Of a DNA stretch of 32,000 nt, positions 7,059 to 26,175 are shown in pieces. This DNA comes from Candidatus Korarchaeum cryptofilum OPF8 (GTDB taxonomy: Archaea > Korarchaeota > Korarchaeia > Korarchaeales > Korarchaeaceae), in contig NC_010482.1 of assembly GCF_000019605.1 (NCBI RefSeq), forward strand, positions 1,020,001 through 1,052,000, read 5' to 3'. The notes under the pieces were generated by a model. The model made no database searches. It was not told where the DNA came from and was given only the letters and a program-made list of their open reading frames with translations. Both the position numbers and the translations under genes were made by a program. The first letter of the stretch is position 1; each line of letters starts with the position of its first letter.

Positions 7059-7729
7059 GGATCAGTTAGCCTCTCTAAGATCCCCCTATCATTCATTAGA
7101 TCTTCCAGGGAGCTATATTCGGGGCCTTTCTCATACCTGGGATCAGGAGCTTTTTCATATCTAGGGTTCCTGACGAGCCCATCCGATGTCACATAGTATG
7201 CCGCACCCCTCGTAATCTCATATGGCTCGTAATCGGGCATTACCCCTCTGTGGATCAAGTTGCTCATCACAAGCATATCTTCACCTGCGTTAACGCTCAC
7301 ATGCCCGTATCCTGGTGGCACCATAACATAACGCCCCGCTTCAGCCTCTATCACTATGAAGTCCTCTATCTCATATATGGAAGCCCCCCTCCTCTGCAGT
7401 AGGAAGATGGCTCTCCCAGAATGAACGTAATAAATCTCGGGGAGGGACTTCCCTTCCAGAGGGAGATGATAATGGCCCTTCGTTTTCGCGAGCTCGCCTC
7501 CCACGTTCCAAGGGGGTATCACTGTCACATCCAACCTGATGGGGCTGCCCCTCAGAGGGGGGAGGTCCCTGTACATCATATAGGCTATACCGTCTTTTTC
7601 CAAGGATTCGGGCATCATCAGGACAGATTTTAACTCATTAAGTCTTCTGATCTCAGGCTTTATTTCCTCACCGAGAGCTAATATCCTCAATTCATCCTTC
7701 AGGAATTCGATATCTCTCGCTATACGCAT
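7055..7729 (-). CDS. pgiA: Cupin-type glucose-6-phosphate isomerase (archaeal cPGI family)
   Basis: 224 aa. TKGHYH, PEIYYV and VPPGYGHVSVNAG, with C-terminal VRNPRY, parallel the Thermococcales cupin PGI motifs (TKGHFH, EVYV, VPPYWAHRTVN, VDNPRW). Confidence 0.8.
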   Translation of the reverse strand: MRIARDIEFLKDELRILALGEEIKPEIRRLNELKSVLMMPESLEKDGIAYMMYRDLPPLRGSPIRLDVTVIPPWNVGGELAKTKGHYHLPLEGKSLPEIYYVHSGRAIFLLQRRGASIYEIEDFIVIEAEAGRYVMVPPGYGHVSVNAGEDMLVMSNLIHRGVMPDYEPYEITRGAAYYVTSDGLVRNPRYEKAPDPRYEKGPEYSSLEDLMNDRGILERLTDP

Positions 7730-7781: not shown

Positions 7782-9446
7782 ATGCGTTACCTATGCTTAG
7801 TGGTGTTGTTGCTTCTGATGATCGCTCCCATCATGGCATCGGCCCAGATAAGCTATGAAGTGGAAGATGAGTCGGTGATACTTGAGATAGATGAGTCTGG
7901 GGATGTATTCCTATCTTACAACTTGACGATTCACGTGACCTCCGGGACTATCGCTAGATACGTCGCCATAGGGATGCCTAATTCTAGATTCGACGTATTA
8001 AAGGCTCTAGAGATAAGGAATGGGGAAGCTAAGGAGGTGGAGTATGAGAAAGTCGTTGAGGAATCTTATTATGCTGTGAAAATGCATCCAACAGCTCCAA
8101 TAAATGCGGGGGAGTCTAGAACCTACCATTTGGAGGTAGTGCTCAAGGATTTCATCTACGAGGATTCAACAAATCCAGGGAACGTTGGGCTCAGGTTCAT
8201 ACCATCCTGGTTCGATGCCAGAGTGAGGGCCCTGAGGCTCTGGATAATCCTTCCCCCAGGGGTAGATAATAGTAATAAGGTCAAGAACCAACCGGATTAT
8301 GATAATTTGATAACGCTTGAAGATGGTAGACTGGCCCTTTACTGGGAGAGATACGATCTGCCACCTAGCTACGAGCTTGATGTAGGTGTCTCATTCCCTA
8401 AGGAATATGTAAAATCTTACGTTAAGGGATCTGAAGGTAATGATCTCCTCTCTGCTGTAGCCGGTCTCATATTCTTAGGGGTCCTTGTCTTCTCGATATC
8501 CTTCGTAGTGAGTATAGTGAAGTCCCTCATCGAGAAGTCCGTCTATAAGCCCCCTGAAGTCTCTGTTGAGAGCCTTGGAGTGAATAAGAACTTGAGGCCC
8601 CCTGAGGTCGCTTATCTGAAGAAGTTGGAGGGAAGAGAGATAAGTTACGGGAGGATATTGGCTACTATAGCTCTGGAATTATCGAATAAGGGGCTCATTA
8701 GGGTGAAGAGTGTAGAGCCATTGGATATTGAGAAGTTGAACAACTCCTCCTCACAACTTAGGGCCTACGAGAAGGTCTTCCTCGATTGCTTGAACGGAGG
8801 CACGCCCTCCGAAGATTGTTTAGTGAACGTGATTAAGAGCTTGCATAGTAGGGTCAATAGGGAGATATCAGGCTACTCCAGGCTCGGTACAATAGCTCAT
8901 TATGAGAAGCTCGTCAATTCCATTTGGAAGGAGATATCTCAAGCTCCAATGGAGAAGAGACTAGAGATCCTGAAGGAAAATCTTCCATGGTTACTCACGG
9001 ATGAGAACTTCGAGAGGAATCTGAAGAAGTACTTGAAGGAGGGCTTATCCCCTGATCAAATTTCCCGTCCCATAGGGGGTACCTGGCCATTGGAGGACAC
9101 TTGGATCTGGATCCCCAGGGGAGGCACTATCTACATACCTCTCCCAAGGGAGCCCGCTCGCCCCAGGGATGTCGGAGGACGACCCGAAGCTAGACCCGAA
9201 GTGGAGGCCCCTGTCATAAGTATAGAGAAAGCGGCCGATTCAATAGCCAGATCCATTGAGGGCTTCTCCTCCTCTATCGTGAGGAACATGGAGGATTTCT
9301 CCAACAAGATAGCGAGGACAATAACGCCTGAGAGACCAAGAGGGAGCAGCAAGAGGCATACTCTGTCCTGCGCATGTGTCAGTTGCGCTTGTGCATGCGC
9401 TTGCGTCAGCTGCGCTTGTGCTTGCGCTGGAGGTGGTGTGAGATGA
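7782..9446 (+). CDS. DUF2207-like single-pass membrane protein with a C-terminal Cys/Ala-repeat tail
   Basis: 554 aa. It has a signal-peptide-like N-terminus (MRYLCLVVLLLLMIAPIMASA) and a beta-rich ectodomain with a DUF2207-like pattern. One TM helix follows (aa 222-249, nt 8445-8528), then YKPPEV...RPPEVAYL...GRILATIALELSNKGLI as in DUF2207 proteins. The protein ends ...SCACVSCACACACVSCACACAGGGVR. Confidence 0.8.
   Translation: MRYLCLVVLLLLMIAPIMASAQISYEVEDESVILEIDESGDVFLSYNLTIHVTSGTIARYVAIGMPNSRFDVLKALEIRNGEAKEVEYEKVVEESYYAVKMHPTAPINAGESRTYHLEVVLKDFIYEDSTNPGNVGLRFIPSWFDARVRALRLWIILPPGVDNSNKVKNQPDYDNLITLEDGRLALYWERYDLPPSYELDVGVSFPKEYVKSYVKGSEGNDLLSAVAGLIFLGVLVFSISFVVSIVKSLIEKSVYKPPEVSVESLGVNKNLRPPEVAYLKKLEGREISYGRILATIALELSNKGLIRVKSVEPLDIEKLNNSSSQLRAYEKVFLDCLNGGTPSEDCLVNVIKSLHSRVNREISGYSRLGTIAHYEKLVNSIWKEISQAPMEKRLEILKENLPWLLTDENFERNLKKYLKEGLSPDQISRPIGGTWPLEDTWIWIPRGGTIYIPLPREPARPRDVGGRPEARPEVEAPVISIEKAADSIARSIEGFSSSIVRNMEDFSNKIARTITPERPRGSSKRHTLSCACVSCACACACVSCACACAGGGVR
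9369..9428 (+). repeat. 27-bp tandem repeat (2.2 copies) encoding CACVSCACA-CACVSCACA-CA
   Basis: Unit 1 (9369-9395) is tgcgcatgtgtcagttgcgcttgtgca. Unit 2 (9396-9422) is tgcgcttgcgtcagctgcgcttgtgct. A partial unit tgcgct follows. The units share 23/27 identical bases, and all 4 differences are synonymous third-codon positions. Confidence 0.9.
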
Positions 9447-10753
9447 GCGAGAGAGAGCTATTGATGTTCAATTACGGGGGCCATAAGATTCAGCTTAGGA
9501 TAGATCCTTATGGAATGGGCTCTCTCATTGTAGATGCAAGTAGAGTAGCTTATCTCAATCACACAGCAGCCATTATGATCAAGGCATTCCTCTCAGGAGG
9601 GGATTGGAAGCAAGCAGTTAAAGAACTCAAGAAATATTACAGAGGGATGAGGAAAAGTGAGGTGAGGAGACATTTCGATGAGATAACTGAGAAGATAAGG
9701 ATGTTCATAGATGGTTACGGAGACCCTGTCACGGATCTGGGATTCAAGTATCAGCTCCCCGATGTCACTGTAATGTCCGCTCCTCTCAGAGTAGATCTAA
9801 TCCTCACTTACAGGTGCAATAACGATTGTATCCACTGCTACTCATCGAGCCCCAGGGAAACGGAGGAGCTGAGCACTGAAGATTGGAAAAGAGTTTTGAA
9901 GATATTTCACGGGCTTGGGGTACCTCAAGTCACTTTCACAGGCGGGGAGCCCACCCTGAGGGAGGATCTCGTCGATCTAGTCTCTGAAGCCCAGAAGCTA
10001 GGTATGGTATCCGGGATCGTGACGAATGGGACTTTGCTGAGTGATGATCTCTCTAGGAGATTAGTGGAAGCTGGCTTGGATTACGCTCAAATAACTCTGG
10101 AGTCGAAGGATCCTGAAGTTCATGATTCCATCACCGGGGTTAGGGGGAGCTGGGAGAGGACAGTCAGGGGGATAAAGAACATGGTGAGTACCGGAGTTTA
10201 CGTGAGCGTCAACTCGACCCTCCTGAAGATGAACTCACCGACCATACTGGATACTATCAGATTCGTCGCGGAACTTGGGGTCCACGGCTACTCCCTCAAT
10301 AGAGTCATTTACAGCGGGAGAGCTACTCTCGATATGGAGCCGAGTTTCGAGGAGATGATCAACATAATAACCGAGGCTAAGGAGCTAGCTATAGAGCTAG
10401 ATCTCGATTTCACTTGGTACGGGGTTACGAGGTACTGCGAGATGGATCCAATAAGCATGGGGCTGGGGCTGAAGTTCTGCTCCGCTTGTAGCATCAATCT
10501 CGCTGTAGAACCGGATGGTACTGTTATACCTTGCCAGAGCCACTACTTGAAGCTCGGGAACATACTGAGGGATAGATGGATGGATATATGGTACTCGAAG
10601 GAATGCTTGAGCATAAGGGAGGCAGCTTATATAGGGGATGCCTGTAAGAGCTGCCCCCTGCTCTCTTTCTGCAGGGGAGGATGTCCCTTAGAGGCTGAGG
10701 TGAGGAGCTATCCATTCAAGCCCCCTGAGGTCGAGCCCCATGAACTCCCATGA
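9443..10753 (+). CDS. Radical SAM/SPASM-domain maturase with an N-terminal PqqD-like (RRE-like) domain
   Basis: CNNDCIHC (CX3CX2C, nt 9815-9838) and GGEPTL are present. The SPASM signature is C-SINLAVEPD-G-TVIP-C (CX9GX4C) plus CKSCPLLSFCRGGC (CX2CX5CX3C, nt 10643-10684). I prefer ATG 9443, which gives an ATGA overlap with the upstream stop and has GGAGGTGG at 9429-9436 as SD. The ORF-track start at 9374 lies inside the Cys repeat. Confidence 0.88.
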   Translation: MSERELLMFNYGGHKIQLRIDPYGMGSLIVDASRVAYLNHTAAIMIKAFLSGGDWKQAVKELKKYYRGMRKSEVRRHFDEITEKIRMFIDGYGDPVTDLGFKYQLPDVTVMSAPLRVDLILTYRCNNDCIHCYSSSPRETEELSTEDWKRVLKIFHGLGVPQVTFTGGEPTLREDLVDLVSEAQKLGMVSGIVTNGTLLSDDLSRRLVEAGLDYAQITLESKDPEVHDSITGVRGSWERTVRGIKNMVSTGVYVSVNSTLLKMNSPTILDTIRFVAELGVHGYSLNRVIYSGRATLDMEPSFEEMINIITEAKELAIELDLDFTWYGVTRYCEMDPISMGLGLKFCSACSINLAVEPDGTVIPCQSHYLKLGNILRDRWMDIWYSKECLSIREAAYIGDACKSCPLLSFCRGGCPLEAEVRSYPFKPPEVEPHELP

Positions 10754-11492
10754 GCTCAGATCGATAGCTGGGCTCATAAGGAGGAACTCAGGCAAAGTCG
10801 TAGCTTTCACGGGAGCTGGCATATCGGCCGAAGCTGGGATACCGACTTTCAGGGGGAAGGGAGGGCTCTGGGAGAAGTATGATCCGGAGGAGCTCGCGAC
10901 TCCCCAGGCTTTCTTCAGGGATCCCAAGCTAGTCTGGGATTGGTATTTATGGAGGATGTCCATAATCGCGAGAGCTCGACCGACTCCAGCTCATGAGATA
11001 CTCGCTCTCTGGGAAGATAAGGGCATATTGAAGGGCGTGATAACTCAGAATGTGGATGGCCTCCACCAGAGAGCTGGCTCTAAGAACTTAGTGGAACTTC
11101 ACGGTTCGATTTGGAGGATAAGATGTACTTCTTGCGATAATAAGGTCTACTTGGGCTTCGGGAACCTGCCGGAGAGGGTGCCACCTGAGTGCGATAGATG
11201 CGGCTCCATCATGAGGCCGGATGTAGTCTGGTTCTACGAGCCGCTCCCCAGGGATGAGTGGATGAGAGCTGAAGATATGATCAGATCGGCCAGTTTGTTG
11301 CTTATAATAGGGACCAGCGGGCTCGTGATGCCAGCAGCGACCCTGCCGATGATGGCCCTCCGGAACAACGCTACTTTAGTGGAGATAAATCCTGAGGAAA
11401 CCAATTTAAGTAGCCTCGCTAAGTTCAGGGTGAGGGAGGGGGCTAGCAGGATATTTGTTGACCTTAATGAGATGCTGGAGGGGATCGCTTGA
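10740..11492 (+). CDS. cobB: NAD-dependent protein deacylase, Sir2/CobB family
   Basis: 250 aa. GAGISAEAGIPTFRG, ITQNVDGLHQRAG, ELHGS (catalytic His) and the Zn ribbon CTSC...CDRC are present. The start overlaps the rSAM gene end by 14 nt. Confidence 0.93.
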   Translation: MNSHELRSIAGLIRRNSGKVVAFTGAGISAEAGIPTFRGKGGLWEKYDPEELATPQAFFRDPKLVWDWYLWRMSIIARARPTPAHEILALWEDKGILKGVITQNVDGLHQRAGSKNLVELHGSIWRIRCTSCDNKVYLGFGNLPERVPPECDRCGSIMRPDVVWFYEPLPRDEWMRAEDMIRSASLLLIIGTSGLVMPAATLPMMALRNNATLVEINPEETNLSSLAKFRVREGASRIFVDLNEMLEGIA

Positions 11493-12370
11493 GGATAGTT
11501 AAGTTCGATCGTAAGTTTCTGGAGGATGTTATCTCCATCCACTGCCCCAGGTGGAGGGAGATTCCGTTGAGCATGAGGATAAAGGATTGTGGTTACTGGG
11601 GGGACCCGGAAGTCTTCAGTTGGTATGTGGATGCCCTATTATCAGCGGATGGGAAAATATTGATAGCTCTGAAGGATGATACCTTGATAGGAGAAGCTGA
11701 GATAGTTCCCGAGAGGCTGAAGTGCCCCGTGGGGGATCACGTTTACCTGCAGATGGTCTGGGTTAAGGAGGGGGAGAGGGGTATAGGAGTTGGTAGGAAG
11801 CTAGTTGAGGAATGTAGTAAATTAGCGAGGGATATGGGATTCTATGCTCTCGATACAATACCATATGATGAGGCCATCCCCTTCTTCGAGGCCCTCGGAT
11901 TCTCGGAGATAGAGTCGCAAGTGCTCATGGAAGCGAAGCCCAGACCGGCCCCTGAGCAGCCTAAGATAGAGGAGATAGGAAAGAGGGAACTTCCAGTAGC
12001 TGTCCAGATGTTAGCAGGACAGACAAGACCATCGGCCCTCCTTTGGGAGCTCCTCTGGGGTAGAGAAGCTGTGGGCCTCCCACCCCCTAGGGTCTTCAAG
12101 GTCAGGGTCGGCCTTTGGGAGTTCGTCCTGGGGCTTTTCAGGCCGACAGCTGATGATAACTACCTATATGCTCTGATATGGGGGCCTGAGAGGGCAAATT
12201 TGGGTCAGATTTTCGATTCAGCTGAGATGGCCCTATCGATAGCATACGATATGGGAGCAACTAAAGTGAGGACCCAGACATGGTGCAAATACAGAGGGGC
12301 TTTCGAAGCGGCCGGTTTTGAGGCGATAAAACGCATCAAATGGATGAGGATGAAAATAAAGGAGGATTAG
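11489..12370 (+). CDS. GNAT-family N-acetyltransferase with an extra GNAT-like C-terminal half
   Basis: 293 aa. The acetyl-CoA loop is VWVKEGERGIGVGRKLVEE (R-x-x-G-x-G). The second half (aa ~165-293) ends in a GNAT-like AFEAAGFE segment but has no Q/RxxGxG loop. TTG start overlaps the cobB stop (TTGA at 11489-11492), with SD GGAGGGGA 9 nt upstream. Confidence 0.8.
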   Translation: MRIVKFDRKFLEDVISIHCPRWREIPLSMRIKDCGYWGDPEVFSWYVDALLSADGKILIALKDDTLIGEAEIVPERLKCPVGDHVYLQMVWVKEGERGIGVGRKLVEECSKLARDMGFYALDTIPYDEAIPFFEALGFSEIESQVLMEAKPRPAPEQPKIEEIGKRELPVAVQMLAGQTRPSALLWELLWGREAVGLPPPRVFKVRVGLWEFVLGLFRPTADDNYLYALIWGPERANLGQIFDSAEMALSIAYDMGATKVRTQTWCKYRGAFEAAGFEAIKRIKWMRMKIKED

Positions 12371-18404: not shown

Positions 18405-19472
18405 ATGACTATGGAGAACCTGCGCTTCCTAGCCATGACATTCTCACTCGATCTCGCCTGGGGCCTGAGTTATATTTACCTGATGCTGGGGATCTACGAT
18501 CTACATGGTATTAATGGCTATTTCCTCGCTATAAGCTTAGGCGCAATAGTTAATTTCCTCGGAACTCTGATCTTCAGCCTTATCAAATATAGGAGACTCA
18601 TTTCAATATCGATAGCACTTTCTTCATCTCTCCTACTGTATTTCGCCCTCAATAACACTAATTACTTCATCATGAGCACCCTCCTCAGCCTCCTATCCTG
18701 CTACGAGCCGCTGATCCTTGAATCCCTGTTCGGGGAGATGGAGGAGGGCGAGGCATCTGGAACTTATTACACGATCTCAGGGCTGGGGAGTATAATAGGC
18801 CTCCTGATAGGCGGATTCCTCGTTGATAGCATAGGTATTAAGAATTTACTATTGATATCCTCTTTAGTATGCTTATTGTCCTCGATAATCGTCCCTGATG
18901 GGATAAATAGTGAGAAGGCAGATTGGGAGATGAATTCGAGTACCATAAGCCTCCTCATGCCTATCCTGATCCTAGAGGGCTTCGTAACTCCTCTCGCATA
19001 CAATTTACTAGAAATAAAACTTTATGAATTTTTCGGAAGATCTAGCTCATTAATTGGATTATTATTTTCTTTATCTATGTTATTAGATATAATATTCGGA
19101 CCATTAATAGGAAAGTTGGTCGACAGGGCTGGGGGAATGATATCCTTCCTCTCCTCAAGCTCCCTTCTCCTAGCACACTTAATCCTATGCGCACTCCTTG
19201 AAGATGGAATCATCCTTATATCACTTCTCCTCATCCCAATCCAACCCTTCTACTACTCCTCCAGGAACAAGTTCGCTATCGAACTCACAGGAAGGCCTGA
19301 AGGTATGTCTATATCCCTTCCGATAGCGACGAGCTCCCTATCACACGCAATATTCTATGGGATATACCCGTCCCTCATGAACTTCCTCAACTACGCGATC
19401 CCCCTACTCTCCGTCCTCTATTTCATCGCACTAATTCCCTTAAAGCTCAAACCTCCTGATATGAGCTTTTAA
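18405..19472 (+). CDS. MFS-type transporter (substrate unknown)
   Basis: 355 aa with about 10-12 hydrophobic helices. GPLIGKLVDRAGG resembles MFS motif A (GxLxDRxGr). The protein is short for a 12-TM MFS. Confidence 0.65.
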   Translation: MTMENLRFLAMTFSLDLAWGLSYIYLMLGIYDLHGINGYFLAISLGAIVNFLGTLIFSLIKYRRLISISIALSSSLLLYFALNNTNYFIMSTLLSLLSCYEPLILESLFGEMEEGEASGTYYTISGLGSIIGLLIGGFLVDSIGIKNLLLISSLVCLLSSIIVPDGINSEKADWEMNSSTISLLMPILILEGFVTPLAYNLLEIKLYEFFGRSSSLIGLLFSLSMLLDIIFGPLIGKLVDRAGGMISFLSSSSLLLAHLILCALLEDGIILISLLLIPIQPFYYSSRNKFAIELTGRPEGMSISLPIATSSLSHAIFYGIYPSLMNFLNYAIPLLSVLYFIALIPLKLKPPDMSF

Positions 19473-19549
19473 CTCCAGAAGCGCCCAGTTCATGAGTTAG
19501 CGAAAATTGGGGAAGCTTCTATTCACTTAACCGGGCTATGATATTCTCT

Positions 19550-20197
19550 TTAGGCTCTCGCATTTCTCAACAAGCTCTTGGCAACCTCGACAGCCTCTAT
19601 CGCATTTTTAGCCCATCCATCAGCACCTATTGACTTCGCGAACTCTGGTGAGGTGGAAAGACCTCCTATAAGCACTTTCACCCTCTCCCTAAGTCCCTCC
19701 TCCTCCAGCCTCCTTATAACAACGCTCATATAATCCCGGGTCGTCGTCAGGAGGGAACTCATCGCCAATATGTCAGCTCTATATTCCTTAACAGCCCTTA
19801 TGAATGTATCTGCATCCACATCGACTCCAAGATCGATTACCTTAAAGCCCGAGGCCTTAAGCATAGTCGCCACTAGACTCTTCCCTATATCGTGAACATC
19901 CCCCTTAACCGTTCCTATGACAACGGTCCCTAAGTTACCGCCTCCCTCAGCCCCTATCCCCAGCTTATCGAGGGCCTTCTTGAATATTGATGCAGCTTTC
20001 AGCATCTCTGCTATGAAGTACTCGCCTTCCTCGAATAATTTCCCTATCTCCTCCATCGCCTCACTCATCGGGCCGAGTATTATCTTCCATGGATCCTCCC
20101 CTGAGGAGATGAGCTCCTCGAGGTACTTCATGAAGCTTTCCTCGTCCAGATTAACCAAAGAATCCTTTAATAGAATCTCCTTTTCCCTAAGACTCAA
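19550..20197 (-). CDS. Stand-alone cobalamin (B12)-binding protein with helical cap plus Rossmann domain (corrinoid-protein/CarH-like architecture)
   Basis: 215 aa. DVHDIGK (DxHxxG, nt 19883-19900), SSLL (SxL) and LIGG motifs are present. The N-terminal ~80-aa helical cap (EDPWKIILGPMSEAMEEIGKLFEEGEYFIAEML) resembles MtaC/MetH-cap proteins. TTG start. Its SD GAGGTGAT overlaps the upstream gene's TGA stop. Confidence 0.88.
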   Translation of the reverse strand: MSLREKEILLKDSLVNLDEESFMKYLEELISSGEDPWKIILGPMSEAMEEIGKLFEEGEYFIAEMLKAASIFKKALDKLGIGAEGGGNLGTVVIGTVKGDVHDIGKSLVATMLKASGFKVIDLGVDVDADTFIRAVKEYRADILAMSSLLTTTRDYMSVVIRRLEEEGLRERVKVLIGGLSTSPEFAKSIGADGWAKNAIEAVEVAKSLLRNARA

Positions 20198-20210
20198 TTA
20201 TATCACCTCA

Positions 20211-21326
20211 TCAGAGCCTATTAGCTGATGTCCTTAGCCTGTAAACTCTCTTCATCCTCCTCTTATATAGCTTCCTCTCCGAGGAGATTAGGCCCATTCT
20301 CGAGAGCTTGAGGAGGGCTTTATAGACACCTTGCAGGGTCGCTCCTTCCACTAGTCTCCATATTTGGTATGCGGTCATCTCCTTCCCATCCCTCATGACC
20401 TCCAGGATCCTCCTCTGAAGCTCCGTGAGGGGGGCGAATGAACCGACCCTCCATCTCCTCATACTGGATCCCGTCAGTAGGGCCACGTATTCACTCCCGA
20501 GTCTAGAGGCGGCTGAGTAGGCCATAGCTGAGATCGGCTTCACGTATATGCCCATCTTCGCTAACTTTATGAAGGACTCCATCGTATCCTTAGTATCCAA
20601 GCTCATCGTCCTAGCCCCTAGGGACTTCAGAAATTCGATGAATTCCCCTCCAATACCGCTATAGTGGACTAAGTATATCCGGGGCATCTCCATCAGACCC
20701 ATCTCCTCCAGTTCCCTGAATCCCTTGATTATCCCGTATGCCAGGATACCGGATTCCGAGGGTATAACTACTCCATCGAATTTGCCCTTGAACTCGTAGA
20801 GCTCATAAGCTATTGTCTTGAATCCCTCTATCATGAAGGGGTTCTCGTACGAGGCTCTCGTTTCCCTGACGCTGAAGGATATCGGTATCTTGAGCTGTGA
20901 GAGGTAGAGAAGCTCGCTGACATCGACTTCTTCGGGATTGACGATGACCCTCACTTCCTTCCCAGAAGCGATCAAATAGGATGCCAGGGAGATAGTGACA
21001 TCCCGCAGGAACTCGAGCTCCCCAATGGCCATGTTCGAGGAACTGACCATAACAGAGGATCCCCTATCTACGTAGGATCCAGTGGGATTCCTGGTCTCAT
21101 CCTTAACGAGGACCCCATCCACTCTCCTCAAGTCAGTTAAGCCTTCCCCCAAGCTGACTATCCTTTCGGCATGAGGTAAAAGACTTTTATACCTCCAAAT
21201 CGAGGGCTCCCTCTCATCAACAGACCAAATTAGCTTTTCTGGTACTATTTCCATCGGGAAGCCGCATTTACAGACCCAATCACTGCTAGATGTGGCGCCG
21301 CACCTGGGGCACTTAAAAAGAGTCAA
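20211..21326 (-). CDS. Threonine-synthase-like (fold-type II PLP) protein lacking the PLP lysine, with an N-terminal Zn ribbon and a C-terminal winged-helix domain
   Basis: 371 aa. The Zn ribbon CPRCG...CKCG and IWRYKSLLP...VSLGEGLTDL align with ThrC N-termini. The motif reads NPTGSYVDRG, whereas ThrC/fold-II enzymes have NPTGSFKDRG (Lys replaced by Val, aa 86). The Gly-rich phosphate loop is degenerate (IPSESGILAYG). The C-terminus (aa 300-363), LTELQRRILEVMRDGKEMTAYQIWRLVEG...VYKALLKLSRMGLISSE, is MarR/PadR-like wHTH. TTG start; the start position is uncertain. Confidence 0.8.
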   Translation of the reverse strand: MTLFKCPRCGATSSSDWVCKCGFPMEIVPEKLIWSVDEREPSIWRYKSLLPHAERIVSLGEGLTDLRRVDGVLVKDETRNPTGSYVDRGSSVMVSSSNMAIGELEFLRDVTISLASYLIASGKEVRVIVNPEEVDVSELLYLSQLKIPISFSVRETRASYENPFMIEGFKTIAYELYEFKGKFDGVVIPSESGILAYGIIKGFRELEEMGLMEMPRIYLVHYSGIGGEFIEFLKSLGARTMSLDTKDTMESFIKLAKMGIYVKPISAMAYSAASRLGSEYVALLTGSSMRRWRVGSFAPLTELQRRILEVMRDGKEMTAYQIWRLVEGATLQGVYKALLKLSRMGLISSERKLYKRRMKRVYRLRTSANRL

Positions 21327-21347
21327 GGTGGGAACCCTTAAAAAGGA

Positions 21348-22565
21348 TCATTTCTGCTTATACGGCAGGTGCTCAGATCCGAAGAGGAACCTCGCCAGTA
21401 TGAGCCTCATTATGTTTTGTCCTCCCTCGGCACCGACGTAATAGCTAAGGACTCCTCTCATAGCCATCTCCAGCGGCGTATCCTTCGTATAACCGTAAGC
21501 TCCAGTAGCTTTCATGAATTCCTTTATAGCATCAACAGCGATCTCAGGTGCGAGTAACTTCGCCATCGCAGCCCAGAAGCCCACATCCCTCAGAGTAGCA
21601 TTGCCCTGATCGTACTGATCCACCATCCAGGCTGCTTTATACATAACGAGTCTGGCCGCCTCTATCTTAGAGTAGTAATCGACTAGTGGGAACTGGATGC
21701 CCTCGAATGATGCTAGGGTCCTCCCGAAGAGTACCCTGTTCTTGACGTAATCCCTAGTGTAATCGAACATAGCCATAGCTGAACCAGTGCATCCCGCTGA
21801 GACGAATACTCTAGCTCTGTTGAAACCTTCCATAGCTATCTCGAATCCCTCATTGACCCTCCCTATAAGATGATCCTCAGTTAGCTTAACGTTATTCAGC
21901 CTGATCCAGCCCGTGCTTATGCCGCACCTCCCCATGTCATCGAAGAGGCCCGTCTCTATGCCCTGAGCATTTATCGGTAGGTAGAAGAGGCTTATCCCCT
22001 TGGATCCAGCCTCGGGCTTCGTCTTCACGAGGGTCACATAGCCACCATCCACTTCCTTAGCCTCAACTATACCGCTTATATAGGTCTTCTCACCATTGAG
22101 GACCCAGTGATCTCCCTCCTTCTTTGCTATCGTCCTGAACCCAGCTACATCACTCCCGCCCTGGGGCTCTGTTGAGCAGATGCCCACGAACCCCTCCCCC
22201 TTGGCTGCCCTGCTGAGGACCTCCTTAGCAAGCTCGGGTTTCGCGTACCTCTCCACTATCTTCCCCCAGGAGGCCTCGACCAGGTGGAAAACAGCGGTAG
22301 CTACGCTGGGATCTGCTCTAGCTATCTCCTCAGTAGCTATCGTACCCATGACCCAGCTGGCCCCCTGCCCCCCGTATTCCGGCTTCACTGTCAGAAGCAG
22401 AATGCCGCTCTCAGCGAGCGCGCTTATCACTTCCCTCGGTATCCTGCAGTTCCTATCTATCTCCCTAGCCCTGGGGGCCAGGACCTCGGATAACAGCTCC
22501 CTCAGGGTTTTCCTGAAGACCTCTTCCTCCTCGGTGAATGAGAAATCCACCAAACGATCACCCAC
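21348..22565 (-). CDS. Acyl-CoA dehydrogenase
   Basis: 405 aa with the typical ACAD layout: FTEEEEVFRKTLRE N-terminus, CSTEPQGGSDVAG and a C-terminal helical domain. The listed start is GTG 22565. An in-frame GTG at 22550 (MDFSFTEEEE) with GGTGAT 6 nt upstream may be the real start. Confidence 0.92.
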   Translation of the reverse strand: MGDRLVDFSFTEEEEVFRKTLRELLSEVLAPRAREIDRNCRIPREVISALAESGILLLTVKPEYGGQGASWVMGTIATEEIARADPSVATAVFHLVEASWGKIVERYAKPELAKEVLSRAAKGEGFVGICSTEPQGGSDVAGFRTIAKKEGDHWVLNGEKTYISGIVEAKEVDGGYVTLVKTKPEAGSKGISLFYLPINAQGIETGLFDDMGRCGISTGWIRLNNVKLTEDHLIGRVNEGFEIAMEGFNRARVFVSAGCTGSAMAMFDYTRDYVKNRVLFGRTLASFEGIQFPLVDYYSKIEAARLVMYKAAWMVDQYDQGNATLRDVGFWAAMAKLLAPEIAVDAIKEFMKATGAYGYTKDTPLEMAMRGVLSYYVGAEGGQNIMRLILARFLFGSEHLPYKQK

Positions 22566-22585
22566 GAACTGCGCACCTAAAAATT

Positions 22586-22663
22586 AAAAAGTTTAGCTCT
22601 AAGGCGCCCGGGCTATTCCGGGGGACCCTAGCGGGGGTCCGGCTAATTGAGGTCAAACTTTTT
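22586..22663. promoter_or_regulatory. Mirror-symmetric divergent promoter region: inverted 9-mers AAAAAGTTT / AAACTTTTT flanking a GC-rich double hairpin
   Basis: aaaaagttt (22586-22594) and aaacttttt (22655-22663) are exact reverse complements. Between them lie hairpin cccgg(22607-11)/ccggg(22618-22) and hairpin ggaccc(22623-28)/gggtcc(22635-40). The element sits between the ACAD (-) and etfB (+) starts. Confidence 0.5.
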
Positions 22664-22695
22664 CTTAAACAACTGCATCGAATTGAGGTGTCCCT

Positions 22696-23475
22696 ATGGA
22701 TATAGCCGTACTCGTCAAACAGTCCCTAGACGTTCAGCAACTGGCTATCGATAGTAGGACCGGGAAGATATATTTAGATGAAGCCCCAACGAAAGCGGGC
22801 GACATAGAGCTCAATGCCGCTGAGGAGGCCGTCAGGATAAAGGAGAAAGTTGGGGGCAAAGCTGTTGCAATAATGCTCTCATACTTCGGCTCCTCTGGAA
22901 GGAGGTTGAAGGAAGCGAGAGAAGCTTTAACGAGGCTTCTGGCGATGGGGATTGATGAAGCATTGCTCCTCCTCAGCAATCAGTACATGGACACTTACTC
23001 AGCTGCTAAATTGCTTTCGGAGGAGATAAGGGGGAAATATCAGTTAGTGCTAGCTGGCGAGGGTAGCGAGGATAACTTCTCAGGAGTCCTGCCAGCTAGA
23101 GTAGCTGCGGAGCTCGGTTGGCCCTACCTCTCCTATGCTACAAGTATAGAGGTCAACGGGGATGAAATAAAAGTCACGAGGAGCTTGGAGGATTATGATG
23201 AAGTCGTATCCCTGAAGCTGCCTGCCGTGATATCTGTGACTCAGGAGATAAATCAACCCAGGATACCCACTGTCCTCCACATAATGAAGGCATCGAAGAA
23301 ACCGATAGTGCAGAAGGAGGTTCAGGCGACTGTGGAGCCCAAGGTCAAGGTTAAGGAGATCAAGGCCCTGAGAGTTGAGAGGAAGAGGATTATCATTGAG
23401 GGAGAGCTTGAGGAAGCTATAGAGAAGCTTATCGATGCTTTAAGGAGCGAGGGACTCCTAGAGGTGAGAGGATGA
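22696..23475 (+). CDS. etfB: Electron transfer flavoprotein beta subunit
   Basis: 259 aa with MDIAVLVKQ... N-terminus, LLLLS..., LAGEGSEDNFSGVLPARVAELGWP and a C-terminal arm. SD GAGGTG at 22685-22690. ATGA overlap with etfA. Confidence 0.92.
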   Translation: MDIAVLVKQSLDVQQLAIDSRTGKIYLDEAPTKAGDIELNAAEEAVRIKEKVGGKAVAIMLSYFGSSGRRLKEAREALTRLLAMGIDEALLLLSNQYMDTYSAAKLLSEEIRGKYQLVLAGEGSEDNFSGVLPARVAAELGWPYLSYATSIEVNGDEIKVTRSLEDYDEVVSLKLPAVISVTQEINQPRIPTVLHIMKASKKPIVQKEVQATVEPKVKVKEIKALRVERKRIIIEGELEEAIEKLIDALRSEGLLEVRG

Positions 23476-25557: not shown

Positions 25558-26175
25558 ATGGTCCTAGTAAAGGTTTATGGGAGGCTTTCAGATCTTTTAG
25601 GATTCAGAGAAAAGAAATTGGAATTTGATGGAAGCCTAAAGGAGCTATTAGAGAGATTAGGAATAAAAGAGATCGAAGGGATAAATGTAGCTGTGAATCA
25701 TGAGCTTAAGAGAGATCTCTCCACCGAGGTCCGCGGGGAGGATCTCGTAGCCATATTCCCGAGCTTTGCGGGAGGAAGCACGGGGGTAGTAAGGGAGAGG
25801 ATATCTCCCGAACCTTTCCTCGAAGCCGGATATGGGGATGTAGGAGCTGTGGTCGCATTCCTCGGGATTGTGAGGAGGGAATCTGAGGAGGGTCAGGTCG
25901 ATAAGATATTCTACGATTGTTACCCGGAGATCGCTGAAAGGGAGCTTATTAGGATCAGGGAAGAAGCTATAAGGAGGTTCGGATTGAGGGATGCCCTTAT
26001 ACTCCATAGAGTGGGCGAAGTGCCGGCGGGCGATATCTCACTCTTCGTCCTGACCAAGTCCGCACACAGGAAAGAAGCTTTTGAAGCCGCGGGATGGATA
26101 GTAGATGAAGTCAAGAGGAGCGTTGCCATATGGAAGAAGGAGATCTTCTCAGATGGAAGGGAGAGGTGGGTTTAA
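25558..26175 (+). CDS. moaDE: Fused molybdopterin synthase: MoaD-like (aa 1-73, ending FAGG) joined to MoaE (aa ~74-205)
   Basis: The N-terminal ThiS/MoaD beta-grasp ends VAIFPSFAGG (GG = nt 25771-25776). It continues without a stop into MoaE motifs: GAVVAFLGIVRRES, ILHRVGEVPAGD, SAHRKEAFEA, IWKKE. Confidence 0.85.
   Translation: MVLVKVYGRLSDLLGFREKKLEFDGSLKELLERLGIKEIEGINVAVNHELKRDLSTEVRGEDLVAIFPSFAGGSTGVVRERISPEPFLEAGYGDVGAVVAFLGIVRRESEEGQVDKIFYDCYPEIAERELIRIREEAIRRFGLRDALILHRVGEVPAGDISLFVLTKSAHRKEAFEAAGWIVDEVKRSVAIWKKEIFSDGRERWV

Follow-up and report, generated by a model that had tools for sequence, protein, structure and literature searches.

The window analysed here is a 32,000-nt stretch of the genome of Candidatus Korarchaeum cryptofilum OPF8 (contig NC_010482.1, positions 1,020,001 to 1,052,000), in which we followed up two adjacent genes, one for a threonine-synthase-like (ThrC-like) protein of 371 aa and one for a stand-alone corrinoid (B12-binding) protein of 215 aa. 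An earlier sequence-only reading of this stretch had described them as a two-gene cassette, and both open reading frames (ORFs) are present as described, with a 13-nt gap (Table 1). The 215-aa product is 100% identical to ACB07780.1/B1L5Q1, carried in databases as 'methionine synthase' or 'corrinoid protein', and the 371-aa product, 99% identical to its K. cryptofilum database counterpart, falls in the 90% cluster of ACB07781.1/B1L5Q2, carried as 'threonine synthase' or 'PLP-dependent enzyme' (PLP, pyridoxal 5'-phosphate). An acyl-CoA dehydrogenase (ACAD) gene precedes the pair, and the etfB-etfA-thiolase genes diverge from it across a 130-nt intergenic region.

The 13-nt spacer with its Shine-Dalgarno (SD) sequence indicates operonic coupling of the ThrC-like and corrinoid genes, the GGTGAT motif lying 5 nt ahead of the TTG start of the latter. 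The sequence-only reading had made the stop codon of the upstream gene part of this SD; a TGA does lie inside 'TGAGGTGAT' at the site, but it is the second of an in-frame TGA TGA, and the true stop is the first. The spacer between ACAD and the ThrC-like gene contains the TATA-like CTTTTTAAG, merely 11-19 nt before the ThrC-like TTG start. Judging from this spacing compared with that of the ACAD promoter, the ThrC-like gene, and the corrinoid gene with it, is probably co-transcribed with ACAD in K. cryptofilum. Many Joint Genome Institute (JGI) gene calls begin at Met25 (347 aa), which would drop the Zn-ribbon; given the TATA-like CTTTTTAAG, a shorter isoform may arise from an internal transcription start. 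A 103-aa ORF of low-complexity composition runs antisense to the ThrC-like/corrinoid junction (19917-20228, plus strand) and is most likely a shadow ORF.

Table 1 Features of the ThrC-like/corrinoid locus, in positions of the window.
Feature	Position	Strand	Basis or remark
ThrC-like pseudoenzyme gene, 371 aa, TTG start	20211..21326	-	ORF list; ACB07781.1 / B1L5Q2
N-terminal four-Cys Zn-ribbon, aa 1-25 (C6, C9, C19, C21)	21252..21326	-	alignments
ThrC-fold (PLP fold type II) predicted sensor domain, aa 40-291	20454..21209	-	profile alignment to solved ThrC structures
Motif NPTGSYVDR, aa 80-88	21063..21089	-	Val86 replaces the ThrC Schiff-base Lys (NPTGSFKDR)
PadR-like winged helix-turn-helix, aa 300-365	20232..20429	-	AlphaFold2 secondary structure and weak HTH_27/PadR matches
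Stand-alone corrinoid protein gene, 215 aa, TTG start	19550..20197	-	ORF list; ACB07780.1 / B1L5Q1
DVHDIG (DxHxxG), aa 100-105, lower axial His ligand	19883..19900	-
13-nt spacer TGAGGTGATATAA, with second in-frame TGA and GGTGAT SD of the corrinoid gene	20198..20210	-
21-nt spacer, ACAD stop to ThrC-like start	21327..21347	-	contains TATA-like CTTTTTAAG
ACAD gene, co-oriented, directly upstream of the ThrC-like gene	21348..22565	-	Pfam/NCBIfam
Divergent ACAD/etfB promoter region, 130 nt	22566..22695	not assigned

The 371-aa protein was matched by Pfam PALP at 6e-20, and Foldseek returned threonine synthases as the best solved structures (6nmx, 2zsj and 1uim; E 2e-15 to 3e-14), which confirmed the fold-type-II PLP fold. 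True ThrC proteins (PRK05638, TIGR00260) share this fold and the N-terminal Zn-ribbon, whose cysteines are invariant or nearly so in alignments of the family and are also present in true archaeal ThrC homologues. However, true ThrC keeps the catalytic Lys, the SxGN loop and the Gly-rich loop. Among 83 family members the Lys column reads A36/V22/S9/M8/I4/T2 and never K. Alignment to ThrC structures revealed that STGNTS of the SxGN loop is replaced by seDFtlS, PVGNAGN of the Gly-rich PLP-phosphate loop by PsESGIL, and NPYRLEG by NPFMIEG. The last change removes an Arg that we take to be the substrate-phosphate Arg of ThrC; the roles of the two loops are likewise presumed from the T. thermophilus ThrC structure. 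The degenerate catalytic motifs noted by the sequence-only reading were thus confirmed at the Lys, the SxGN loop, the phosphate loop and the phosphate Arg alike, and the 371-aa protein is, on these alignments, a non-catalytic, enzyme-derived pseudoenzyme.

These data bear on the database annotation, by which the 371-aa protein would be a working threonine synthase and the 215-aa protein a fragment of methionine synthase. In its favour, the top fold and sequence matches are indeed threonine synthases and the B12 domain of MetH. We nevertheless regard it as almost certainly wrong: the PLP Lys and SxGN are missing, the phosphate loop is degenerate, three deletions separate the protein from true ThrC, and the threonine-synthase models stay well under their curated cut-offs, at one third or less (PRK05638, 141.9 versus 421 bits; TIGR00260, 21.7 versus 167.1), and the 215-aa protein corresponds to no more of MetH than its cap and B12 modules. 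The labels 'threonine synthase' and 'methionine synthase' in the reference genome of K. cryptofilum are misleading, and this analysis corrects both.

Loss of the catalytic residues has not been accompanied by general drift of the pocket. Across the 83 members N80, P81, D87, R88, D109, S113, P189, G193, L195 and T285 are nearly invariant, and the pocket segments are conserved throughout the family. The ThrC pocket is, as far as the alignments tell, remodelled yet under selection, which fits a ligand sensor and not decay. Longer ThrC-PadR proteins of 440-470 aa from Thermococcales and Bathyarchaeota share the C-terminal PadR domain and keep most of the motifs, with K or K>R at the Lys position, whereas the 370-aa family has lost the catalytic motifs and bears the three deletions.

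The sequence-only reading had placed a winged helix at the C-terminus of the protein. In the AlphaFold2 (AF2) model, built with 26 homologues (mean predicted local distance difference test score, pLDDT, 89; low-confidence linker 292-297), this segment does fold as a winged helix-turn-helix (wHTH) with a beta-hairpin wing (H302-310, H319-325, H331-343, E347-354, E357-364; pLDDT of the block 85-94). The direct Pfam matches were sub-threshold, namely PadR with 15.2 versus 27 bits (0.022) and HTH_27 with 16.7 versus 22.2 bits (0.009). The precomputed Pfam assignments of relatives are PadR, HTH_20, HTH_27 or TrmB, and the C-terminal pattern TAYxIW...TLxGVYKAL..L...GL....(basic wing)...Y is PadR-like, with TLQGVYKAL as recognition helix and KRRMKRVY as basic wing in K. 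cryptofilum. Very probably, the ThrC-like protein is a transcription factor that senses a ligand. The notion of an enzyme-derived, DNA-binding regulator in the sequence-only reading has therefore gained ground, both from the wHTH of the model and from a promoter palindrome of relatives that co-varies with the recognition helix.

For the search of relatives, one genome per species was scanned, which yielded 394 relatives of the ThrC-like protein, and the best 80 of the 394 loci were fetched (L numbers denote fetched loci). Neighbour context was assessed by a tblastn survey and by untargeted neighbour clustering, and both agreed on three groups. The order pdxS>pdxT>ThrC-like, on one strand and with tight spacing, was found in 30 of the best 80 loci and in Hyperthermus butylicus, giving 31 loci with the PLP synthase genes; their hosts are Sulfolobales, Desulfurococcales, Pyrodictiaceae, Methanomethylicales, metagenome-assembled genomes (MAGs) labelled Nitrososphaeria, and Hyperthermus. 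In L054 the order differs (ThrC-like>pdxS>pdxT). Loci of the korarchaeal type account for 14 of the best 80. No recurrent informative neighbours were seen in the same survey for Thermoproteus, Vulcanisaeta, Caldivirga, Acidilobus, Caldisphaera and others, or for L017. A literature search returned no publication on ThrC-like wHTH regulators or on an archaeal pdxST regulator, and the ThrC-like wHTH proteins are, as far as this search reached, an archaeal family without a published description, labelled 'threonine synthase' or 'PLP-dependent enzyme' in databases.

The long ThrC-PadR genes were also placed in context. In Pyrococcus their surroundings held nothing informative. A Bathyarchaeota gene for a 467-aa ThrC-PadR protein (Lys to Arg; L089/L090, 6001-8219) is followed by a gene for an energy-coupling factor (ECF) transporter S component (PF07155), and the spacer of this locus contains the 10-nt perfect palindrome AGTTGCAACT (~7437-7446). 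This may represent a second, related family of vitamin regulators.

Upstream of pdxS, a palindrome of the form TTGAA-NN-TTCAA was found with at most 2 mismatches in 31/31 regions, lying 49-87 nt before the pdxS alignment start, with a TATA-like box a few bases further on. The exact sequence TTGAACGTTCAA occurs in 16 copies in 1.08 Mb of loci, against 0.065 expected, and abuts the pdxS promoter immediately upstream of the B recognition element (BRE) and TATA box. tATTGAACGTTCAATAa stands ahead of pdxS-pdxT-ThrC-like operons in many Thermoproteota (L001 4295, L038 258, L045 6296, L059 4834, L066 6282, L072 6257, L080 1849 and about 25 other loci). The palindrome is also found ahead of operons in which a major facilitator superfamily (MFS) transporter gene precedes the ThrC-like gene (L057, L058, L078), of the genes for an ECF transporter (S component PF07155, fused ATPase, T component) that come shortly after the ThrC-like gene (L081), of a CitMHS permease gene (L037) and of the ThrC-like gene itself (L042).

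The centre of the palindrome links it to the protein. In five loci the centre is not CG (TTGAAGCTTCAA in three of them, TTGAAGCTTCAG and TTGTAGTTTCAG in one each), and exactly these five encode the recognition helix LRGVY[TSA][TS] and not LRGxY[KR]; the two central bases (CG/GC) change together with one residue of the helix (K/T). Because of this co-variation, and because the palindrome follows the gene into operons without pdxST, the ThrC-like wHTH protein is its most likely binder. The palindrome is a candidate archaeal B6 operator. The regulon predicted from these sites comprises PLP synthase (pdxST) and candidate vitamer transporters of the MFS, ECF and CitMHS types. Since pdxST synteny, the promoter palindrome, the sites at candidate vitamin transporters and the co-variation all point the same way, we propose the ThrC-like family as a candidate archaeal vitamin-B6 regulator.

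The co-variation also bears on the idea that the two K. cryptofilum proteins handle cofactors, with the ThrC-like protein buffering or delivering PLP, the corrinoid protein storing or delivering B12, and the wHTH serving for protein contacts. The organism would then be one that scavenges cofactors. Both proteins have folds that bind cofactors, neither has a catalytic partner close by, and K. cryptofilum reportedly lacks the synthesis of several cofactors, which we counted for this idea. We hold it to be very unlikely, as the recognition helix co-varies with the promoter palindrome in relatives, which is evidence for DNA reading, and the K. cryptofilum protein has kept the basic wing.

In the B6 reading, members of the ThrC-like family, in Korarchaeota and many TACK-type archaeal lineages, would be dimeric, small-molecule-sensing transcription factors, encoded in most lineages by the third gene of a pdxS-pdxT operon. 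They would bind TTGAACGTTCAA upstream of the BRE/TATA of pdxS-pdxT and of candidate B6-vitamer transporter genes, and the retained pocket, minus the Schiff-base Lys, would reversibly bind a ligand, most likely PLP or another B6 vitamer. The closest bacterial counterpart in arrangement, PdxR/MocR, likewise joins an enzyme-derived PLP-fold sensor to a winged helix, has its gene next to pdxS-pdxT, uses a repeat-type operator at the pdxST promoter and counts candidate B6 transporters in its regulon (for the ThrC-like family, these are predictions). However, PdxR/MocR proteins combine an N-terminal GntR wHTH with an aminotransferase domain of fold type I in which the PLP Lys is retained, whereas the ThrC-like family has fold type II, a lost Lys, a C-terminal PadR-like wHTH and an N-terminal Zn-ribbon. 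Archaea are reported to lack MocR/PdxR regulators (PMC5320631). With another fold, another domain order and another DNA-binding domain, the ThrC-like family is an analogue of PdxR and not a member.

A parallel in strategy lies within Archaea, where ThiR, a vitamin regulator, consists of a ThiN domain and a DNA-binding domain. RbkR, another enzyme-derived archaeal vitamin regulator, joins riboflavin kinase to a wHTH (PMC5397151). In both, as proposed for the ThrC-like family, the fold of a biosynthetic enzyme is reused as a vitamin sensor, synthesis and uptake genes are controlled, and palindromic operators were predicted by comparative genomics. Both differ from it in fold and vitamin, and RbkR is still catalytic, while the ThrC-like domain is dead. 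If the proposal is true, a fold-type-II PLP pseudoenzyme joins RbkR and ThiR among the few archaeal vitamin sensors that derive from enzymes. The regulation of B6 synthesis in Archaea is a gap, for which the ThrC-like family offers a directly testable candidate regulator, now with a concrete putative operator in TTGAACGTTCAA, a predicted regulon (pdxST with MFS, ECF and CitMHS transporters) and a protein-DNA co-variation pair.

Korarchaeal loci are arranged as thiolase<etfA<etfB <> (fer4) ACAD (DUF1805) ThrC-like, followed by the B12 protein gene. Wherever the upstream side of a korarchaeal locus can be seen, ACAD lies directly upstream, with L014 as the exception. Apart from L014, every korarchaeal locus that reaches beyond the regulator gene has the corrinoid gene immediately after it, in about 11 distinct contigs, with small or negative gaps and over a range of 53-92% identity between the ThrC-like proteins; since it is kept down to 53%, the pairing is not due to chance within this lineage. 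L014 (1035-3379) again departs from the rule, with a DUF1805 gene and the ThrC-like gene but no corrinoid gene; after a 370-nt gap comes a gene for an EamA-type transporter. Outside Korarchaeota, pairing was found in 0/66 loci. The synteny survey that the sequence-only reading had called for has thus confined the pairing to Korarchaeota. EamA-type genes likewise come after the cassette in loci of the deep korarchaeal clade, and one abuts the ThrC-like gene in L017. In the deeper clade (L002 5703-5993; L008-L016, L022) the ThrC-like gene is directly preceded by a gene for a 96-aa DUF1805 protein, which is missing from the K. cryptofilum locus; just two papers were found to mention this domain.

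The ligand-pocket segments of the korarchaeal proteins match those of pdx-linked members, whereas the DNA-reading head differs, with LQGVYKAL against LRGxYK in the recognition helix and KRRxxRxY against RGxRKxKxY in the wing. In terms of the proposal, the K. cryptofilum copy would have kept its pocket, changed its DNA-reading head (R to Q in the recognition helix, another wing) and moved into an ACAD/ThrC-like/corrinoid-protein transcription unit. The K. cryptofilum gene is, by these comparisons, a rewired member of a probable new archaeal vitamin-B6 regulator family derived from a dead threonine synthase, and its rewiring beside a corrinoid protein makes it an unusual case.

A changed head is also consistent with a new regulon of another kind, in which the ligand of the protein would be an amino acid, or an adduct of one with PLP, and its targets the adjacent ACAD/ETF/thiolase genes of peptide fermentation, with the corrinoid gene as a passenger. 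The position of ACAD upstream in the visible korarchaeal loci except L014, the divergent etfBA-thiolase genes and the gap of just 21 nt between ACAD and the regulator gene in K. cryptofilum are in line with this. An enumeration of palindromes in 12 korarchaeal loci gave solely ATCAA-AAAG-TTGAT and AGGGT-GCA-ACCCT. The former lies in the divergent etfB/fer4-ACAD promoter of deep-branching korarchaeal loci (L002 3985, L008 5974, L009 5993, L012 2022, L016 4935), as a catabolic regulator might have it. However, it is restricted to that deep clade, does not occur in loci of the K. cryptofilum type and shares bases with generic BRE/TATA-like sequence, and it was rejected as an operator. AGGGT-GCA-ACCCT was rejected since it overlaps an SD. 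As an aside, ATCAA-AAAG-TTGAT resembles everted pdx half-sites.

The ACAD/etfB region itself contains two conserved blocks, AAAAAGTTTGAC at 22652-22663 and, read on the other strand at 22583-22594, AAAAAGTTTAGC, both inverted and BRE/TATA-like. The conserved parts of the intergenic region amount to two inverted copies of AAAAAGTTTRRC, around a GC-rich centre that is not conserved, and because of their spacing to the start codons these copies are two BRE/TATA core promoters. Inverted repeats in 22560-22700, 21320-21350 and 19400-19560 were short, unremarkable and not conserved. In relatives at 65% and 55% identity, a separate TATA-like box stands ahead of the ThrC-like gene or of the DUF1805-ThrC-like pair. 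Control of fermentation genes by an amino-acid sensor is, in our view, unlikely, given that the conserved intergenic pieces are just two core promoters and that the pocket residues do not differ from those of pdx-linked members, which speaks against a change of ligand.

The 215-aa protein consists of a helical cap (aa 10-79) and a Rossmann B12 domain (aa 91-203), with Pfam matches to B12-binding_2 (2e-18) and B12-binding (7e-28). The motifs named in the sequence-only reading are all there, with SxL at aa 147-149 and GG at aa 178-179 besides DxHxxG. By far the top-scoring NCBIfam families are MtgC, MtbC and pyl_corrinoid at about 165 bits, though under the curated cut-offs (MtgC 169.1 versus 370; MtbC 163.7 versus 350; TIGR02370 165.8 versus 215.3), whereas the CarH family NF052513 gave 35.3 versus a cut-off of 400 bits. 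Matches in the PDB follow the same order, with the Moorella corrinoid protein 1y80 at 2e-43, MttC at 3e-38, the MetH B12 module at 4e-30, MtmC at 1.9e-27, MtaC at 5.6e-21 and CarH at 4e-6. The protein shares its cap, Rossmann domain and DxHxxG/SxL/GG motifs with MtbC, MttC, MtgC, MtaC, Moorella 1y80 and the MetH modules. Unlike MtbC/MttC-type proteins, it has no adjacent methyltransferase or activator gene and a ThrC-like regulator as neighbour.

Orthologues in Korarchaeota are 72-100% identical, and the next relatives, at 50-57%, come from Desulfurococcales and related Thermoprotei. Five loci of these closest non-korarchaeal relatives were sampled (clusters at L084 5922-10315, L085 5962-10142, L086 2923-11176, L091 3959-8279 and L092 4027-7574). 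The corrinoid activator gene RACo follows the corrinoid gene in 5/5, MtrH is adjacent in 4/5, and a gene for a protein of about 320 aa adjoins the corrinoid gene in 4/5; in L086 a gene for an FmrO-type protein takes that place, the ~320-aa gene lying 3 kb upstream. The ~320-aa products of L084, L085 and L086, the three tested, match Pfam Meth_synt_2, the core-MetE domain. Such a cluster of ~320-aa gene, corrinoid gene and RACo, with or without MtrH, reads as a classical methyl-transfer module, plausibly a corrinoid-dependent methionine synthase. In a 2021 survey, split MetE was the sole methionine synthase found in Thermoprotei (PMC7857596). By sequence, the K. cryptofilum protein is a methyltransferase-type corrinoid protein and a predicted methyl carrier.

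This assignment bears on the proposal of the sequence-only reading, a split sensor-regulator in which the corrinoid protein senses B12, its Co or methyl state, or light, and docks on the ThrC-like wHTH protein to control ACAD/etf or other genes. CarH/LitR is the precedent, as a B12-binding module associated with a DNA-binding function. However, in CarH one chain holds both the B12 module and a MerR-type DNA-binding domain, and its cap has the Wx9EH motif for adenosylcobalamin (AdoCbl), while the K. cryptofilum DNA-binding partner is a separate, unrelated protein; the 215-aa protein, which by Pfam contains cap and B12 domains only and no MerR-type domain, is weakly similar to CarH and lacks Wx9EH. 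That reading had itself said in advance that methyltransferase partners found consistently elsewhere would mark an ordinary methyl-transfer protein, and the closest non-korarchaeal relatives sampled are all encoded in methyl-transfer clusters with RACo, most of which also hold MtrH and a core-MetE-like gene. The regulator stands without a B12 partner in every other lineage surveyed and in L014, its family link being to vitamin B6 genes, and no ThrC-like/B12 fusions occur among the matches listed (120 homologues).

A split sensor can still draw on the tight or overlapping coupling of the two genes in about 11 distinct korarchaeal loci, on the unusually high conservation of the corrinoid protein and on the surroundings of the pair. 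The sequence-only reading had seen no methyltransferase or mutase catalytic subunit nearby, and Pfam annotation and searches of the window gave no methyltransferase, mutase or corrinoid activator genes across its 32 kb. Similarly, tblastn with core-MetE, RACo and MtrH returned no match in the window or in any korarchaeal locus, and a literature search returned nothing on Korarchaeum pdxS, MtrH or methionine synthase in accessible papers and supplements. Weighing both sides, we think it quite improbable that the corrinoid protein is a cobalamin or light sensor for the regulator.

The explanation that we favour, and to which we give a little better than an even chance, is that of a B6-type regulator family with a rewired korarchaeal copy and a methyl-carrier neighbour as a cargo gene. 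The 215-aa protein would be a His-on methyl carrier, of the kind that works elsewhere with MtrH, a core-MetE-like methyltransferase and the RACo activator, and its gene would be co-transcribed, possibly regulated cargo and not the sensor of the regulator. The pairing is most simply read as a lineage-specific operon, in which a methyl-carrier gene is expressed together with a B6-type transcription factor and may be under its control. What the data show is the domain architecture, the missing catalytic residues, the wHTH fold, the synteny, the palindrome with its co-variation and the class of the corrinoid protein; that the regulator binds DNA, which ligand it senses, whether it activates or represses and what the korarchaeal copy controls are inferred.

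Several observations weigh against this explanation. The coupling of ThrC-like and corrinoid genes is tighter than expected of a casual operon mate, holding down to 53% and 72% identity of the respective proteins. Neither the pdx-type palindrome nor any other conserved operator is present in the window or in any fetched korarchaeal locus; TTGAACGTTCAA at up to 3 mismatches has 3 matches in the window versus 6.3 expected, none of them intergenic, and ACGT-centred 12-nt palindromes are absent from the window and from korarchaeal intergenic regions. In addition, E191 (E in 52/83 members, mostly acidic) sits inside the former phosphate loop and D109 is near-invariant, and these acidic residues make canonical PLP-phosphate binding in the ThrC-like pocket uncertain.

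A variant that would use the tight coupling is a two-protein switch confined to Korarchaeota, in which a B6-sensing regulator would bind DNA differently according to how much cobalamin the corrinoid protein carries or how far it is methylated. We regard it as a long shot. If it exists, such a switch would combine two signals, from cofactors or one-carbon units, at promoters like those of ACAD/etf, and would amount to a split B12-dependent regulator with a dead threonine synthase as one half and a recruited methyl carrier as the other.

The other window ORFs were assigned by Pfam to ribosomal and translation genes, a nucleoside-type ATP-binding cassette (ABC) transporter, a peroxiredoxin, an MFS transporter and molybdopterin genes, and a few had no Pfam match. 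A scan for sigma-70 promoters and intrinsic terminators was uninformative for an archaeal host. The MFS transporter (18405-19472) was tried as kin of the palindrome-linked MFS transporter of L058 and rejected (E 0.18). At 7782-9446, a 554-aa ORF without a Pfam match overlaps the start of a radical S-adenosylmethionine (SAM)/SPASM enzyme gene (9374-10753), after which come genes for a Sir2 deacetylase and a GNAT acetyltransferase (10740-12370). Directly downstream of the thiolase gene, an ORF at 25558-26175 encodes a fused ThiS/MoaD-MoaE, with the small and large subunits of molybdopterin synthase in one chain, followed by MoaC and then MoaA.

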